This document shows, piece by piece, positions 3,781-16,557 of a stretch of DNA of 64,000 nt. The notes beneath the pieces were generated by a model. The model did not search any database. It was given only the letters and a program-made list of their open reading frames with translations, and had not been told where the DNA came from. Made by a program: the position numbers and the translations under genes. Position 1 is the stretch's first letter; each line of letters begins with the position of its first letter. Where the stretch lies: assembly GCA_963737905.1 (NCBI GenBank), contig CAVTUQ010000005.1:1-64000 (forward strand). Direction: 5' to 3'. Source of the stretch: an uncultured delta proteobacterium. GTDB lineage: Bacteria > Desulfobacterota > Binatia > UBA9968.

Positions 3781-5901
3781 TTAGCGTATCATTATCAAGG
3801 CGTCCACGGCCAATGCTCCTTGACCCACGGGCAGCACAACCACAGGATTCAAATCCATTTCAGCGATGTCGTTGTCGAGGTCGTAAGCCAGCCAAGAGAG
3901 CCGGGCAGCCATTTCGGCCAGCGCGTCGATATCCGCTGGCGGCGCACCACGCACGCCGGAGAATACTTTTGCGCCTTTGAGAGTTTCCAAAGCACGGCGT
4001 GCTTCGGCAGCACTGATGGGTGGAATGCGAATCGCGACGTCCGCCAAGATCTCGACGAAGACACCGCCCAAGCCCACGACCAGAGTCGGTCCTAGCTGTT
4101 CGTCGCGCGAGATCCCAAGCAGGCACTCGACGCCCTTGATTTGCTTCTGAACCAGAACACCTTCGATATTCGCATTTGGCTTTTTTGCTTTTACAGCCGC
4201 AAGTATTTCATCGTAGGCTTTCTGAACGCTCTCTTTGTTCTCTAATCCGATCCGAAGCGCGCCGAATTCTGTCTTATGCGGAATATCGACGGATACGATT
4301 TTAACCACACAGGGATAACCAAGTTGCTCGGCCGCGCTTACCGCTTCGCCGACTGATTGCGCCATCGCTGCCGGCGCCAGCGCAATGCCATACGCGCCCA
4401 GCAGTTTTTCCGTGGTGCTGTACGGCAGAACGCCGCTGCCAAGGTCTCGTCGCGCGGGCGCCGAACCCGCCCGTGTAACTGAATCAAAGCGACCCACCGC
4501 ACGGTCGCGTTCGTTCTTGCGCAGCCGGCCCATGGCACGTAACGATTTGCGATAATCGCCGGTAAACGTCAGTCCCAGCTCGTTGAGCCGCGTGTACCAA
4601 ACTTCGGCCGGCGGTTCGGTGGCTCGCGTAAGCACGAATACACGCTTATCGTTGGCGAGACTCAAGTCGGAAAGCTTTTGATAAAGCTTCTCTGATGCAG
4701 GCGTGAGGGACTCTGGTAAATTCAAGCGCAGGCCCACCATATCGATTCTGGGCTCTTGAAAAAATCTCTCCAAGCACTGATCGAAGCCTTCAGGCTTTAT
4801 CCGCTGCAGATCTTCAACGTCGAGGGGATTTCCAAGCAAGGTCGGTTTATCGAGGCTCTGGATCATGACTTGCTGGGTCTCCGGACTAAGCTCCGGCACG
4901 GGCACGCCTTCTTGATCGGCGATATCGCAAAGCAAGGTGCAATCGCCGCCGGAGATCGTGATCAGACCGACGCCTCGATCATGTTTGTCCAGGCGCATCT
5001 TTGCACCGGCGAACAATGCCGTCGTGTCGATGAGATCATCAAGATCATTGACGATGATGGCGCCGTGTTGCTCGAAAAACGCGTCCCATGCGGCCACGGC
5101 GCCGGCGAGTTGACCGGTGTGGGCAATGACGTTCCGTTTCGCTCGTTCCGTACGGCCCGCGCGGAGCACTAAGACCGCCTTGCCATTGGCGACGGCGCGG
5201 TCCAACGCTGCGGCAAAACGTTGCGGTTCCTTGGGCGCTGCTTCGATATAGGTGGCGATGACGTCAATTTCCGGGCACTCGGCCTCGTAAGCGAGATAAT
5301 CGGCGGCGTTGAGGATGATCTCGTTGCCGCCGCTGGCGCAGAGATGAAAGCCTAAGCCGCGCTTAGCGCCCGCGTTTATCAACAGATTCATCATGCCGCT
5401 GCTCTGAAAGATACAGCCGATGTTTCCCGCGCGGAGATTCTTCGGCAGTTCGCCGCCCCAGATTCCCAGCTTGGCGCGGACCGAAACGAACCCCATACAA
5501 TTGGGGCCAAGAAGTTTTATCCGTGCCGTTTTGGCGGCTTCGGTCAACTGCTGCTGCAGTTGTTTTCCCGCCTCGCCGCCTTCGGCGAATCCGTCGGCAA
5601 AAATGACTCCGGCCTTGACGCCTTTTTCCCCGGCCTCTTGGACGACGGACGCTACTGCCTTGTTATTGACGGCGATCACTGCCAGGGGAATTTCACCTGG
5701 AACATCGAGAATGCTCGGATAGGCTTTCAGTCCGAAAACCTCCGGACGGCTGGGGTTGATCGGCACGATGCGAGAGAGGTCGAACCCCATGTTTTGCAGA
5801 TTCTTAAATATATTGACCGCGTAGTGATTGCGGTCGCTGGCGCCGATAATGGCAAGACGATCTGCCTCGAAGAGCGGTGATAAAGGTCTGTCCGTAGACA
5901 A
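3781..5901 (-). CDS. Acetate/acyl-CoA ligase (ADP-forming) family, fused alpha-beta
   Basis: AIIGAS CoA-binding fold, LLGPNCMG, phospho-His motif AHTG, C-terminal ATP-grasp (HKTEFG, GLGGVFVE, EMDLNP). Confidence 0.93.
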   Translation of the reverse strand: MSTDRPLSPLFEADRLAIIGASDRNHYAVNIFKNLQNMGFDLSRIVPINPSRPEVFGLKAYPSILDVPGEIPLAVIAVNNKAVASVVQEAGEKGVKAGVIFADGFAEGGEAGKQLQQQLTEAAKTARIKLLGPNCMGFVSVRAKLGIWGGELPKNLRAGNIGCIFQSSGMMNLLINAGAKRGLGFHLCASGGNEIILNAADYLAYEAECPEIDVIATYIEAAPKEPQRFAAALDRAVANGKAVLVLRAGRTERAKRNVIAHTGQLAGAVAAWDAFFEQHGAIIVNDLDDLIDTTALFAGAKMRLDKHDRGVGLITISGGDCTLLCDIADQEGVPVPELSPETQQVMIQSLDKPTLLGNPLDVEDLQRIKPEGFDQCLERFFQEPRIDMVGLRLNLPESLTPASEKLYQKLSDLSLANDKRVFVLTRATEPPAEVWYTRLNELGLTFTGDYRKSLRAMGRLRKNERDRAVGRFDSVTRAGSAPARRDLGSGVLPYSTTEKLLGAYGIALAPAAMAQSVGEAVSAAEQLGYPCVVKIVSVDIPHKTEFGALRIGLENKESVQKAYDEILAAVKAKKPNANIEGVLVQKQIKGVECLLGISRDEQLGPTLVVGLGGVFVEILADVAIRIPPISAAEARRALETLKGAKVFSGVRGAPPADIDALAEMAARLSWLAYDLDNDIAEMDLNPVVVLPVGQGALAVDALIMIR

Positions 5902-6063
5902 GGGAAGCCTCCGTGAAAAACGGGAAGTCTGATTCGAAGATCTGACTTATCCCAGTTGGAAATGGATGTCCAATGCGAGGCTGGAGCGATTATCAGGAAG
6001 CGAGCAGTGGAACTTTGGTACCGAGACGAAATGTCGAGCGGTGAACACGATTCCTTGGATTAT

Positions 6064-6236
6064 CTTGTCCCAGAAGTTGGCAAAAGAAGTCGGTGGTATC
6101 CCCACCGTCATGCCCCCGAAAGCATCCAGAAGCATTTGATTATCCTGGATTCCGGGTCGCGATACCCCGGACCGTGATCCGGGGTTGCCCAGAATGACGA
6201 TTGAATTATGATATGTAACGAACGTCTGAGACAGGG
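6064..6236. repeat. REP/MITE-like palindromic element
   Basis: CGTCAT (6106)...ATGACG (6199) arms around internal hairpins; outer imperfect IR ttgtcccagaagtt / aacgtctgagacag. Confidence 0.6.
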
Positions 6237-6259
6237 CACTAGAAGAGAAGGGTATAAAA

Positions 6260-7585
6260 TCATCGAGCTTTCTGTTTGCCACTCCTCGGAGCTTTATTGC
6301 CTCGACGAGTCGCCAGATCTACGAGTGCATCCAAATCGACGAGATGAATCGGTTTGCCTTCCGCAAAGGCGTACGCGTGAGAAGTAAACGTGCTCGTCGT
6401 GACGACGTAACCGGATTGTGCGCCGGAGCTCATAAGCGCACTGTAGAAATCCCGGACCACAGGTTCCCCCACCGGAGCACTCCAACGCTTGCATTGAACG
6501 GCGATCAATTGATTGTTCTTACGCAACAACAAGTCTATCCCGTTATCACCCGTTTCCGGCGTAATCTCGACCGTGTATCCGATCTCACGGAACAGACTCA
6601 CGGTAAACTCTTTGAAAGCTACGGCATTCATGCTGCACACGTTGCTCGCGATGTCTACCTGTGTGGAAGGGTTGCCAATGTAGCCAAATGAGACGAGCGC
6701 CTCTTTTGCAAGATCAACTGTTACGTGGTCGGTTGCATAGTCGTTTATGTAGTTGCGCAGTCTCTTGACCATTACTCTTGCGTTACCGGGGGTCCCTTCG
6801 CAGTGTTGGGCAAGCAGCGTTGCAGCCTCGGGATCGAAGGTGAGGTTTCCAATTAATTTTACTATCTCGCCAATTTCTTGCACGCTGTAGGGTGCGAAAT
6901 CAAAGCGAATCATCCAGCGACGGAGACGTTGGTCCAACTGCCAGGGCTTTGATGTCGTTCCAACTAAGGTGAACCGCTTAAGCGGAAGCCTGAGACTCCG
7001 CACCTTTGTTTCCTGGTCTGCAGGAAGTTCAAGAGTAAAATCTTCAATGGCCGCCATCAGAGCCTCTAACGCCGGTTCTTTTAGCGATTCTATTTGTTCA
7101 ATAAGGAAAAAATCTCTCTCTCCAAGTTCTGTCAGCAAGCGGGCAAGATCCGCGGGTTCTGCAGCGACCGGCCCGTAAGCTCTATTGATGTTCACCTTCA
7201 TCTCACGAGCAATCATGCAAGCCAAAGTAGCCTTTCCCATTTCAGGAGGGCCGGACAGCAAGAGATGAGGGAACGGTCTGGGATGATGGACAGCCGCTTC
7301 CATTCGAGGCAGGACGTCTTTCTTTATTTCTTCTTGTCCCACATAGTCATCAAAGCGAGGACTGGCTTTAGTGTCTTGCCAAGATGGGATACGCTCGACG
7401 GGTTCGGCAGATGGAGAATCAGAAGAAAGTTTCTCGGTTTCAGCGGGTTTATCAACATCTCGAGCCAGAGCATGAGATTTTTCAGCAGCTTCCTTGAGCT
7501 CTGCATCGGCACAAGCTTCGCAAAGCCCATTGTCTGAAAGGGAAAGAAACCATTTGGAAAGTCCGCAACGTTCACAGGTTGCCAT
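6260..7585 (-). CDS. RuvB-like AAA+ domain fused to C-terminal Mrr-type restriction endonuclease, with N-terminal Zn ribbon
   Basis: CERC..CEAC; RuvB-like FDDYVGQ, HLLLSGPPEMGKAT, FTLVGTT, GTP; Mrr-like GDNGIDL..AVQCKRW..VVRDF..VVTTSTFT. Start placed at ATG 7585 after GAGG. Confidence 0.85.
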   Translation of the reverse strand: MATCERCGLSKWFLSLSDNGLCEACADAELKEAAEKSHALARDVDKPAETEKLSSDSPSAEPVERIPSWQDTKASPRFDDYVGQEEIKKDVLPRMEAAVHHPRPFPHLLLSGPPEMGKATLACMIAREMKVNINRAYGPVAAEPADLARLLTELGERDFFLIEQIESLKEPALEALMAAIEDFTLELPADQETKVRSLRLPLKRFTLVGTTSKPWQLDQRLRRWMIRFDFAPYSVQEIGEIVKLIGNLTFDPEAATLLAQHCEGTPGNARVMVKRLRNYINDYATDHVTVDLAKEALVSFGYIGNPSTQVDIASNVCSMNAVAFKEFTVSLFREIGYTVEITPETGDNGIDLLLRKNNQLIAVQCKRWSAPVGEPVVRDFYSALMSSGAQSGYVVTTSTFTSHAYAFAEGKPIHLVDLDALVDLATRRGNKAPRSGKQKAR

Positions 7586-7659
7586 TTGCGAAACCTCTCG
7601 CCTAAATATCCTTAACCCTGAGTCCAATCTGCATGCAAGGGCTTCTACTAAATTCGGAG

Positions 7660-9027
7660 TTATTTGTGAACAAGGAGTTCGATCAGCTCCCGGACACTAC
7701 CGATCGTTTCGAGGTGTTGCACGTGATGAACCAGCTCCGTGGATTGTTTTTCAGAGATGGCACTCTTCGCATTGCTGCGAAACTTGTCCAAAACTTCCTC
7801 TTCCGTCATCGGATTGTCCGGATGGCCTTTAGCAATCCTGGCCGTGTAAGTAAATCGGCTTCCATCTTTCAACTCGACGCTTACCGGGCAATAGGGTCCC
7901 GGCTCGGGAATAGTATCATCGACAATCACTTGAACTTTGCTGATGGCATCCTGAACTTCAGGCTCGTTGGCCTTGGCGTCCGTGAAAGTGTCGATTTCTA
8001 ATTTGCCATCGAGAAAAGCGAGAGCGACGACGTAATTGATGGCGAATTTCCCGCGCAGGCCGGTTTTCACTTCAGCATGGTAGTGGCGCTGATAGCGTAA
8101 CGGTGGGATGCTGACCTTTATCTTCTCCACGTCAGCGAAGCGAATATGGTGTTCCCGTTTCAAGTGCAGCGCGGCGTCGGCGGCGAGAAATTGCGGCGCG
8201 CTGCACGGATGGAGTTTGAGGCCGAGGCCGGGAGACTCCAAAAAGTAAGGCTGGCCAAGAGCGGCCATCATCTTTTCGTAATCACAGGTTCCGGGACCGA
8301 AGAAAGTATCGCAGAATCCTCTGGGAGCTTCGATTATGGCGGCGTCGGCGGTGAACGCTTTTTCGGCCAGCAGCGCCGCTTCAACGCCGTTTCGCGCGGC
8401 GTTTGCGGCGTGAAAGGGCTTGACCATCGAGCCTTGCTGGCGGTGGATGCCGCCTGCCCCTGACGCGGCAATGCCGAGGGCTGCTTTGATCTTGTCAGGG
8501 TTGAGTCGCATAAGGCTGGCACAGGCGATGGCGGCGCCGATGCTGCCTAAGACGGGCGTACTGTGAAAGCCGCGGTCCTGCACGTTGGGCGCGTTAGCAG
8601 CTATCTTGGTGAGTATTTCGATACCCAATACATAGGCTTTTAATAGATCTTTTCCCGAGGAGCCGATGACTTCCCCCAGGCTCAACGCGGCTCCGGCCAC
8701 CATGCAGGTCGGATGACCCGCATGGATAAAGGCGTCCCAATCGTCGAAGTCGATGGCGTGACCGAGGAGTCCATTGGCGAACGCCGCCATGGGGGCAGAT
8801 GATTTCTGGCGTGTTCCCCAAATTGTCGCCTCGTCGCTATGGCCGACTCTCCTGCAATAATCAAAAGCGATGGCGGCAGTCTCCGTTGTAACTCCTACGA
8901 GTGCGGCGCCGAGGGTGTCGAGGATATGCATTTTGGCGTTGGTGAGGACTTTTTCGGAGATAGTCGCAAAATCGGTTTCAGCGACGAAGCGGGCGAGCGT
9001 GTCGGTGACGGGCGGCGATTGAGCCAT
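7660..9027 (-). CDS. MmgE/PrpD family protein
   Basis: ILDTLGAALVG, ANGLLGHAIDFDD, GHP, RGFHST, KPFHA, KLHPCS. Confidence 0.93.
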   Translation of the reverse strand: MAQSPPVTDTLARFVAETDFATISEKVLTNAKMHILDTLGAALVGVTTETAAIAFDYCRRVGHSDEATIWGTRQKSSAPMAAFANGLLGHAIDFDDWDAFIHAGHPTCMVAGAALSLGEVIGSSGKDLLKAYVLGIEILTKIAANAPNVQDRGFHSTPVLGSIGAAIACASLMRLNPDKIKAALGIAASGAGGIHRQQGSMVKPFHAANAARNGVEAALLAEKAFTADAAIIEAPRGFCDTFFGPGTCDYEKMMAALGQPYFLESPGLGLKLHPCSAPQFLAADAALHLKREHHIRFADVEKIKVSIPPLRYQRHYHAEVKTGLRGKFAINYVVALAFLDGKLEIDTFTDAKANEPEVQDAISKVQVIVDDTIPEPGPYCPVSVELKDGSRFTYTARIAKGHPDNPMTEEEVLDKFRSNAKSAISEKQSTELVHHVQHLETIGSVRELIELLVHK

Positions 9028-15140: not shown

Positions 15141-16557
15141 CTAGTTGACGATTTTTTCCGCCGCCTCTTCGCCGGTGCGGACGCAGTCGGCAATGCCGAC
15201 TCCATGATAGGCATTGCCGGCGAGAGCGAGATTTGGGAACTCAGCCAGCTGCGCTTCAATTCGCTCAATGCGGGCTTGATGCCCAAGATGATATTGCGGC
15301 ATGGAGTTTGGATGACGCCAGACCCGCGAGAAGACGGGTTCAGCGACGACGCCCAGCAAGCGTGCGAGTTCGTCACGCACATTTTTCTCCATGGTGGCGT
15401 CGTCGTCTTGAAATAATTGTCGGTTGCAGACTCCCTCCGACAAAGGCCCGCAGCAGTACATGGCCTTCCGGCGCTCTACCGGGATATTTCAAACTGCTGA
15501 AAGTGCAGGCCATGATTTTTCTCGACTCCACCGCTGGCACGACGAAGCCAAAGCTGTCGAGCGGGCGGGGAAAGTCTTTTTGCCGGAACGCGAGATTGAC
15601 CGTTGCAGTAGATGCACAGGTGATCTGCTTCAAATCATCGGCAGCGCCGGAAGCAAAGCCGCCAAGCAACTCTGCGGTTTGGAACGAAGGAGTTGCGAGA
15701 ATGACACCGTTCGCTTCAAGGCTTTCGTTCCCGCCGGTCGTAACCTTCCAGAGATTCTTATCTATATCCCGGATCAGTCCCGCGATTGGAGTATTCAAGC
15801 GCACACATCCCTCGGGAAGCCGGCTTACGATCCGGTCCACCCATTCCTGCATGCCGCCTGCGAGGGTGACGAACAGACTCCAACGGGCGCCACTGCCAGC
15901 CTCGCGATTGCGAGCGCGCCGCCTTTGCTCGGAAACCATCGAGAGAATAATGCTGCGATGGGCACGTTCCATTTCCTTGAAACGCGGCAGGGTGGCGCTA
16001 AGGCTGAGTTTGTCGGGATCCGCCGCATAGATGCCGCCGACGAGGGGTTGCGCTACTCGATCTAAAGCTTCTGCGCCAAAGCGCCGCCGGACGAAAGCTC
16101 CCAGGCTCTCATCACCGTTCAGAGCGCCACGCGGCAGAAAAATCTCGGCGGCCATTCTGAGTTTGCCGGCCAATGAAAAAAGTGGCGTCCGTGCGAAAGG
16201 CCAGAAGCGCGTCGGCGCGAGCAAGAAAAAGCCTTCCGGAAGAGGTTCCAATCTGCCGTCATGGACAACGTAGATCTTTTGATACGCCGCTTGGGTTGAT
16301 ACCAGGCGTGAAGTGAGGCCCAAGCGCTCGCACAGACGAAGCGCCCAAGGCTTTTCGGTAATGAAGGAATCCGGGCCGGCTTCGACGATGAAATCTCCAA
16401 CGCGCTCCGTCGCGATGGTCCCGCCAAGTCGAGCGGATGCTTCGAGCAGCAGCACTTCGATATCAAGAGAATTCTGTCTTTTTTCAGCTCGATGAGGCGG
16501 TGCGTTGCGGCGAGCCCAGCGATGCCGCCACCGACCACGATGATGCGGCGAGTTCAT
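15141..16557 (-). CDS. hemY: HemY-type proto/coproporphyrinogen oxidase (three apparent frameshifts)
   Basis: VVGGGIAGLAA, EASARLGG, EAGPDSF, GFGFVVP-like SFGFVVP, MPQYHLGH, GVGIADC; split across ORFs 16119-16538, 15373-16557 and 15141-15461. Confidence 0.9.

Follow-up and report, generated by a model that had tools for sequence, protein, structure and literature searches.

McrBC, which acts on foreign DNA, couples a PD-(D/E)XK nuclease to a ring of AAA+ GTPases; the system consists of two proteins, runs on an active GTP-driven motor and belongs to another AAA+ clade than RuvB. Type ISP enzymes carry an N-terminal nuclease and an active superfamily 2 (SF2) translocase as their nucleoside triphosphatase (NTPase), joined to methyltransferase and target-recognition domains, and in STAND NTPase-Mrr proteins (Avs-type) a module of the NTPase fold presumably controls an Mrr-clade nuclease via oligomerisation. 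Here we describe a gene, P0001, whose product appears to share the working principle of these NTPase-coupled PD-(D/E)XK systems. It lies in the first 64,000 nucleotides of contig CAVTUQ010000005.1 (assembly GCA_963737905.1) from an uncultured soil bacterium of the Binatia, a stretch referred to as a whole as the window, and it encodes a RuvB-type AAA+ module with a degenerate ATPase site, fused to an Mrr-type nuclease. We propose that the AAA+ part is a non-motor scaffold or switch that positions the nuclease on DNA in a defence-like role, a reading to which we give about as much credence as doubt.

With RuvB (TIGR00635 / PF05496 + PF17864 + PF05491) the fusion protein shares colinear large and lid AAA+ domains, a common fold and the length of the presensor-1 hairpin; the Walker A lysine is kept and so, in the window's subfamily, is the trans arginine finger. 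It differs in scoring below the equivalog cut-offs, in its replaced ATPase motifs and in having a nuclease in place of the head domain; moreover, it carries an added zinc ribbon, sits outside the ruv operon, is accessory and falls in a separate clade. Against the NCBI RuvB equivalog models TIGR00635 and NF000868, the fusion reached 158.3 bits (cut-off 282) and 152.5 bits (cut-off 299.05), respectively, over residues 76-300 only. According to Wald et al. (2022; PMC9477746), the ATP cycle of RuvB involves Lys65, Thr66, Arg21, Asp110 and the sensor-2 Arg218 in cis and Glu128, Asp129 and Arg171 in trans; the paper also describes rings that assemble through the large and small ATPase domains, DNA gripped in the pore by four arginines of the C-terminal head domain, and RuvA domain III bound by the presensor-1 hairpin and helix alpha-3.

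The nuclease half resembles Mrr-type D..QxK nucleases (AF1548, 1y88; MspJI, 4f0p; AspBHI, 4oc8) in its Mrr_cat score, catalytic motif and restriction-endonuclease fold, although, in contrast to Type IV enzymes of the Mrr/MspJI kind, the protein has a pseudo-AAA+ module in place of an Mrr_N or SRA-like reader. The Type ISP enzymes LlaBIII and LlaGI likewise join an Mrr-like nuclease and an NTPase module on one polypeptide, and the nuclease motifs align. The NTPase of the fusion is of the classical RuvB clade, which sets it apart from the STAND-Mrr proteins (nSTAND3 16.3 bits, cut-off 27.2), as does the lack of a repeat-type sensor domain; McrBC gave no sequence match to the fusion protein in the searches run. 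Mrr-like restriction endonuclease effectors occur in NTP-dependent conflict systems according to a paper (eLife 2020, PMC7159879) in which 'RuvB' is not mentioned. No published description of a RuvB_N-Mrr_cat fusion was found among the matches listed by full-text literature searches, judged largely by title and abstract and with subscription journals and supplements outside their scope. The RuvB-like pseudo-AAA+/Mrr proteins are a real, uncharacterised and rare family.

Domain anatomy and the ATPase site

The gene is a stop-free open reading frame (ORF) of 441 amino acids (Table 1). Its ATG start is backed by the N-termini of related proteins, in that all full-length close relatives open with M-[AP]-[TK]-C at this point, and GAGAGG lies 8 nt upstream of the ATG; an alternative TTG start at 7627, 42 nt upstream, would add 14 residues. 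Two CxxC pairs are present in every close-clade alignment row that reaches the N-terminus. Pfam searches assigned residues 77-222 to RuvB_N (E 1.7e-33, 116 bits; cut-off 27), residues 233-299 to AAA_lid_4 (26.2 bits, marginally below the cut-off of 27) and residues 318-424 to Mrr_cat (PF04471; E 3.4e-31, 108.2 bits; gathering threshold 21), with a 44-bit match to the NACHT-associated REase domain PF22722 NA-iREase1 beneath the stronger Mrr_cat match. The RuvB_C head domain (PF05491) had no Pfam match in the protein, Mrr_cat standing at residues 318-424 instead; the product of the gene between those for an MmgE/PrpD-family protein and an acyl-CoA synthetase (ACS) is thus a protein with an Mrr domain at the position of the RuvB C-terminal head domain. 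An Mrr_N or SRA-like modification-reading domain likewise gave no Pfam match at E <=1.

Structural comparison gave the same picture. By sequence, the best solved structures for residues 77-301 were all RuvB (E 3e-35 to 7e-27), with chains such as 1in4 and 8efv at E ~1e-35 to 1e-33. An AlphaFold2 model of the full-length protein, built with 59 family sequences, had a mean predicted local distance difference test (pLDDT) value of 81, with a confident AAA+ module and C-terminal alpha/beta domain, a short zinc-ribbon region, a helix, and disorder at residues 40-73; when this model was submitted to Foldseek, RuvB chains came out on top (8efv, E 1.5e-21). Residues 301-441, folded alone (pLDDT 83), matched AF1548 (1y88, E 1.8e-6), MspJI (5e-6) and AspBHI (2e-5), and more weakly NucS/EndoMS and Hjc-type resolvases (E 3e-3 to 2e-2 for the latter). 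The sole solved sequence relative of the nuclease domain was the N-terminal nuclease of LlaBIII (4xqk, E 0.011), the alignment pairing GDNGIDL...AVQCK of the fusion with KDTGVDL...AIQAK. The motif GDNGID...VQCK (D347, D351, Q364, K366) is intact in the window's protein. A preliminary description of this DNA, made from the letters alone, had proposed a zinc ribbon, a linker, a domain colinear with RuvB and an Mrr-like domain in the place of the winged helix, with an intact D...QCK motif; this anatomy is borne out in every part, and D351, Q364 and K366 are all there.

Table 1. Coordinates of the fusion gene, its domains and motifs, and the associated insertion and repeat in the window (residues in fusion numbering).
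Feature	Position	Strand	Remarks
Whole fusion gene P0001, 441 codons plus stop	6260..7585	-	In order: zinc ribbon, linker, pseudo-AAA+ module of RuvB type, nuclease of Mrr type
N-terminal zinc ribbon, residues 1-28	7502..7585	-	C4, C7, C22, C25 (CxxC-x14-CxxC); model pLDDT 70-87
Helix, then disordered, fast-evolving linker, residues 29-76	7358..7501	-	pLDDT <50 at residues 40-73
RuvB-type AAA+ large domain, residues 77-230	6896..7357	-	Presensor-1 hairpin length kept; Pfam, PDB, Foldseek
Degenerate Walker A, GPPEMGKAT (canonical GPPGLGKTT)	7226..7252	-	Glu115 for the P-loop Gly; Lys118 retained; Ala119 for the Mg-binding Thr
Degenerate Walker B, LIEQIES (canonical FIDEIH)	7085..7105	-	Asp to Glu163; catalytic Glu to Gln164; His to Glu166
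Sensor 1			Canonical Thr to Ser212
Arg223	6917..6919	-	Kept; aligns to R170 of T. maritima, the trans arginine finger of RuvB
RuvB-type lid (small ATPase) domain, residues 231-300	6686..6895	-	AAA_lid_4; most constrained part of the protein
Sensor 2, GTPGNA (canonical GTPRIA)	6779-6796	-	Arg to Gly267
Mrr-type PD-(D/E)XK nuclease domain, residues 301-428	6302..6685	-	Mrr_cat, fold matches
Nuclease catalytic motif, D347, D351 ... Q364-C-K366	6488-6547	-	Aligned to the LlaBIII nuclease
Stretch missing where G002 and G023 have empty sites	5978..7659		PrpD stop codon to the conserved ACS upstream region
Dispersed non-coding repeat with GC-rich hairpins, ~100-190 bp	6057..6244	.	188 bp here

The protein was aligned residue by residue with T. 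maritima RuvB and with 17 canonical RuvBs. At fusion positions 115, 119, 163, 164 and 267, all 17 canonical proteins keep Gly, Thr, Asp, Glu and Arg, respectively; the changes to Walker A, Walker B and sensor 2 that had been claimed for the window's protein were confirmed, GKA, EQ and Gly267 standing against the canonical residues in 17/17 RuvBs. No conserved counterpart of the cis arginine that binds the alpha-phosphate in RuvB (Arg21) was present upstream of residue 77 in the family alignment. By alignment, the residues that RuvB needs for productive Mg-ATP binding and hydrolysis are replaced.

Conservation across the fusion family

A word-indexed search returned ~95 fusion proteins (28-89% identity), all from metagenomes or metagenome-assembled genomes and annotated at source as either 'RuvB' or 'restriction endonuclease'. 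When 1.84 billion 50%-identity representatives were searched exhaustively, 119 matched at E <=1e-30, and those among the best 150 matches with an AAA+ part together with D351, [QE]364 and K366 were taken as 80 family representatives; since the nuclease motif defined this set, its presence there is by selection. None of the 80 representatives combines GK[ST] with DE, so the degeneracy proposed for one protein holds family-wide; the sensor-2 arginine is retained in 6/80, the finger arginine in 25/80 and Lys118 in 67/80. The residues found at the lost ATPase positions vary by subfamily, as would a site freed of catalytic constraint rather than one with a new conserved chemistry. In contrast, GD[HG]GID...QCK[RQ][WF] is nearly invariant and the most conserved feature of the family, and the motif GD[HG]GID..QCK, including the lysine, is present in 27 of the 28 distant members covering it, the exception (P0076) looking chimeric.

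Family members are encoded by one gene, measure ~350-450 amino acids and occur in Acidobacteriota, Binatia, Planctomycetota and Saccharibacteria; in the ESM Atlas, three clusters have the RuvB-like/Mrr architecture (63, 59 and 52 members), and the phylum most often represented is Acidobacteriota. When a tree of AAA+ parts was built, the fusions formed one clade (Shimodaira-Hasegawa-like approximate likelihood ratio test, SH-aLRT, 100) separate from 19 canonical RuvBs, among which were the RuvB of the same genome and the one encoded beside a planctomycete fusion (L028), suggesting a single origin. The N-termini differ, consisting of one or several zinc ribbons, a coiled-coil-like helix, a 250-residue region of no known family, a second pseudo-AAA+ copy, or nothing. 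Two tandem pseudo-AAA+ modules precede the Mrr domain in Binatia versions of 654-695 amino acids (L021:9440-11524, P0067 and P0068). Effector swapping was considered for three proteins without Mrr_cat (P0093, P0096 and P0097) and rejected, as their ends read as truncations.

Thirteen independent metagenome contigs contain close copies of the gene (79-89% identity), and all eight that reach past its 3' end run into the ACS gene. A misassembled fusion, which the preliminary description had named as a way for its reading to fail, is excluded by these contigs. Across eight pairwise contig comparisons, the ratio of nonsynonymous to synonymous substitution rates (dN/dS) of the fusion gene was 0.23-0.35, against 0.04-0.125 for the PrpD, ACS and CoA-transferase genes; by part, with six contigs pooled, it was 0.16 for the zinc ribbon, 0.57 for the linker, 0.26 for the AAA+ large domain, 0.075 for the lid, 0.32 for the Mrr domain and 0.82 for the tail. 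The gene is, on these rates, under selection and maintained, yet more loosely than its neighbours.

Close to the window's protein, several residues of the ATPase site are nearly fixed. Lys118 is present in 59/59 members of the close clade and 30/32 distant members (35-55% identity), Glu163 in 63/63 and 20/32, an acidic residue at 166 in 63/63 and 29/32, and Arg223 in 66/66 and 31/32, respectively; the motifs GPPEMGKAT, LIEQIES and GTPGNA are fixed within the window's zinc-ribbon clade. We therefore considered whether the ATPase is alive, with Lys118, Glu163, Glu166, Ser212 and the trans Arg223 making up a non-canonical site that hydrolyses NTP and drives a translocating nuclease like McrBC or the Type ISP enzymes. 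Near-fixation of these residues in the close clade and the 35-55% subfamily is in line with such a motor, as is the purifying selection on the AAA+ part, strongest in the lid. Set against this, the Mg-coordinating threonine is kept in just 1/59 close and 2/32 distant members, the sensor-2 arginine is gone in 66/66 and 32/32, the fourth P-loop position holds Glu where every canonical RuvB compared has Gly, and in the wider family the positions drift freely, to the point that no representative retains both GK[ST] and DE. A live motor seems to us distinctly unlikely.

A proposed non-motor scaffold for the Mrr nuclease

We reasoned that the RuvB-derived body may assemble by the same large and lid domains that RuvB uses; of all parts of the protein, the lid is the most constrained. 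The AAA+ part would then no longer be a motor but an assembly, DNA-encircling or regulatory scaffold, in which nucleotide may be bound or mimicked without turnover; Lys118 and the Arg223 finger are kept in the subfamily, and the conserved P-loop Glu115 may mimic a phosphate. Several Mrr domains would in this way be brought around duplex DNA and cut it, and targeting or control may fall to the N-terminal module, which varies within the family and consists here of a zinc ribbon tethered by a flexible linker. The role would be in defence or in a restriction-like conflict with foreign DNA. A three-copy complex prediction of the AAA+ part (residues 77-300; score 0.19, mark 0.42) was uninformative either way.

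Taken further, and here we are tentative, the fusions might represent a new class of self-contained immune nuclease, in which a former motor ring would act as a fixed clamp on DNA, with nucleases in place of its head domains, and would be armed by assembly on target DNA. The trigger could be a nucleotide level, a phage protein, or RuvA recruitment to branched replication or recombination intermediates of invading DNA; a response to RuvB-targeting phage proteins or to branched DNA as such, as suggested in the preliminary description, is speculation.

Several observations weigh against a non-motor scaffold with a defence-like role. The neighbours of the gene inside the window are purely catabolic or housekeeping, and no methyltransferase or partner gene is conserved beside it; no mobile or defence genes were seen at two distant loci from Pirellulales (L025 and L026); and PADLOC-DB 2.0, NCBIfam and PHROGs contain no whole-protein model. 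Since neither Lys118 nor the arginine finger is kept family-wide, a general nucleotide switch is excluded, and the conserved acidic residues 163 and 166 leave room in the subfamily for a non-canonical active site. Finally, among the 64 close-clade clusters that cover the nuclease positions, 19 have another residue instead of Lys366 (Q 14, R 4, M 1) and 5 have Gly or Glu instead of Asp351, in ORFs that are full-length. One K-to-Q group is monophyletic (SH-aLRT 95), and the further losses are scattered and independent; the K366Q/R variants include the P0044-P0052 subclade. Part at least of the window's clade therefore has another task than DNA cutting, or is on its way out.

These replacements also favour a different account, namely that the gene is a decaying or domesticated remnant in the window's lineage, in which the nuclease is being lost and the survivor, if any, is a DNA-binding or structural factor without a conflict role. 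A dN/dS 2-5 times that of the neighbours and an otherwise catabolic locus point the same way. On the other hand, the ratio lies far below 1, the full-length reading frame is intact in at least 49 cluster representatives, the window's own copy keeps every nuclease residue, and within the clade the pseudo-ATPase motifs do not vary; loss of effector residues is, moreover, equally expected of costly defence genes. We regard a remnant as unlikely.

If the protein is indeed a non-motor scaffold for a nuclease, the family would be a defence-type nuclease that arose by an unusual route, in which RuvB was copied, its engine disabled and its DNA-contacting domain swapped for a nuclease. It would offer a natural case for what an AAA+ ring that burns no ATP does, be it as clamp, switch or decoy, and would show how nuclease effectors stay silent until needed. 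The family is small, its members are single genes, and current defence catalogues do not list it, which makes it easy to test; natural controls come built in, since one clade has lost the catalytic lysine repeatedly. Should the reading fail, a corrected annotation is still gained, in that proteins labelled 'RuvB' or 'restriction endonuclease' at source miss the RuvB cut-offs and the defining ATPase motifs.

Locus, insertion and genomic context

The fusion gene is flanked on the same strand by the MmgE/PrpD-family gene (7660-9027) and the gene for an ADP-forming ACS (3781-5901), around which lie genes for CoA-transferases and an acyl-CoA dehydrogenase. It was found in none of 40 relatives of the same genus, family or order (0/38 without the unpublished G006 and G012), where the only matches were canonical RuvB at 35-40% identity over residues 40-300, and in none of 400 further genomes of the phylum (255 genera). 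Empty PrpD-ACS spacers were present in G002, of the same genus, and G023, of another genus, where 466 or 205 bases are left unaligned between the matching segments. Both genomes encode a full-length PrpD (454 and 455 amino acids), and just the identity of its tail DNA is low; the idea that the insertion replaced the PrpD 3' end was therefore discarded, and the insert is purely intergenic (~5978-7659 of the window). Third-codon-position GC content (GC3) is 0.50 in the fusion gene and 0.62-0.66 in four neighbouring genes. By these marks of distribution and composition, the gene is a horizontally acquired, stand-alone accessory insertion of foreign composition, and its earlier placement as an insertion in a catabolic region is borne out by the empty sites and the neighbouring genes. 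A search for direct or inverted repeats flanking the insert yielded just two weak inverted pairs, away from the boundaries, and a promoter and terminator scan gave nothing above chance.

The genome has one above-cut-off match each to ruvC, ruvA and ruvB, all in a ruvC-ruvA-ruvB operon at C22:152575-154770, where ruvA occupies 153158-153733 and the true ruvB scores 471.5 bits; as the preliminary description had it, no ruvA or ruvC is near the fusion gene. This bears on the possibility that the protein is an accessory of recombination or repair, with a RuvB-like module that still binds RuvA at branched DNA such as Holliday junctions and an Mrr domain that cuts there. The kept length of the presensor-1 hairpin and the fold relationship of the Mrr domain to the archaeal resolvase Hjc speak for it, as does one locus from Planctomycetaceae (L028:3149-11013), in which the fusion gene lies 0.7 kb downstream of a canonical ruvB with ruvA 4 kb upstream. 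However, a housekeeping task misfits a gene missing from all 40 relatives and all 400 phylum genomes searched, in a genome that owns ruvCAB; the hydrophobic face of the hairpin reads LELPAD in the window's clade against LDIVVG in canonical RuvB; recombinase or phage genes adjoin in 4/8 distant loci; and the L028 copy is frameshifted and groups with Planctomycetota fusions rather than with the adjoining ruvB. We consider a repair accessory quite improbable. The frameshift in L028 falls between lid and nuclease and may be a long-read error; this copy has GK-TT in Walker A and several N-terminal zinc ribbons. Its origin from a local ruvB duplication was rejected on its place in the tree, apart from the neighbouring ruvB.

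The spacer between PrpD and ACS is a small hotspot of variable content. G002 and G023 have nothing in it, and in the window and seven contigs the fusion gene is its sole gene. PrpD lies upstream in 7/11 contigs that show this side; in three (L104, L108 and L112), a SoFic-like Fic-domain gene is directly upstream (PADLOC SoFic, E 1e-35 to 6e-42), but these three are kin and hence not independent occurrences. In L105, the upstream ORF is membrane-like, on the opposite strand and of no recognised family. The mapped contents of the spacer are 5978-7659 in the window, L104:1-1080, L108:1-970, L112:1-2072 and L105:1-1165. Upstream of the fusion gene, a 5' fragment of the ACS gene (window 5982-5597) recurs as a duplicate at L105:751-1074 and at L112:1559-1944, where it meets window 7713 head-on; we infer that this structure, which looks like a single-crossover (Campbell-type) integration, arose from a circle of ~1.9 kb carrying the fusion gene. 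Relative to contigs L101-L111, synonymous divergence of the fusion gene was 0.22-0.31, compared with 0.39-0.74, and once 1.24, for PrpD, ACS and CoA-transferase; a value of roughly half suggests either more recent exchange or spread by recombination among lineages, or an effect of composition.

Distant loci were collected at one genome per species with a single peptide pattern, which gave eight full-length loci, four of which have recombinase, integrase or phage genes within 5 kb. In Binatia, one fusion gene has an integrase and an antitoxin-like gene beside it (L022) and another an MNT-type gene matching PDC-S09 (L021); a serine recombinase is 4.4 kb away in Saccharibacteria (L023), and in a further bacterium (L024) a serine recombinase is adjacent with a Cas4-like nuclease nearby. 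In Gemmatales (L027:9106-15850), the fusion gene stands between a 249-aa and a 139-aa ORF, the latter followed by a lambda-family portal gene and a capsid-protease gene; the fusion gene holds the usual position of the large terminase, and no terminase was recognised in this locus. A terminase role there was rejected on the grounds of a single locus, a dead ATPase and the lack of copies in viral contigs.

Some of this context fits defence or mobile DNA. Defence-like neighbours comprise the SoFic-like gene in 3/11 related contigs, the PDC-S09 match in L021 and the Cas4-like gene in L024, with none in the window, all given as raw counts. In PADLOC, all matches at E <1e-4 fell inside residues 310-433, the Mrr part only (PDC-S02, ZorD and mREase_IV, the last spanning residues 310-424 only); matches to the ATPase part (IetA, mad8) had E 0.002-0.01. 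The recombinase or integrase genes beside the fusion in L022, L023 and L024, its place before portal and protease genes in L027 and the duplicated ACS fragment of L105 and L112 would also suit service to a mobile element, for instance in exclusion of rivals, in addiction or in processing of the element's own DNA. Yet 2.9 million IMG/VR viral contigs contained no full-length copy (three weak Mrr-only matches), none of 72,556 PLSDB plasmid records covered 80% of the protein, no accompanying element genes are present in the window, and a dead ATPase is unfit as a packaging motor; such a service is, in our judgement, very doubtful.

The preliminary description had further placed the inserted gene next to a palindromic element. 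The element is real, being the repeat at 6057-6244, of which five partial copies lie elsewhere in the genome and dozens in five relatives (G001, G002, G004, G015 and G023), but it is unrelated to the insertion. Because the repeat is missing at this site in all eight related contigs that span it, it arrived separately; by its dispersed copies and this absence it is a recent insertion resembling a miniature inverted-repeat transposable element (MITE) or a repetitive extragenic palindromic (REP) sequence, later than the gene and neither part nor vehicle of its insertion. Elsewhere in the window, a flavin amine oxidase (15144-16557, minus strand) is read as two overlapping ORFs, 15376-16557 matching positions 15-341 of the Pfam profile and 15144-15461 positions 342-442, which suggests a frameshift or an assembly error.

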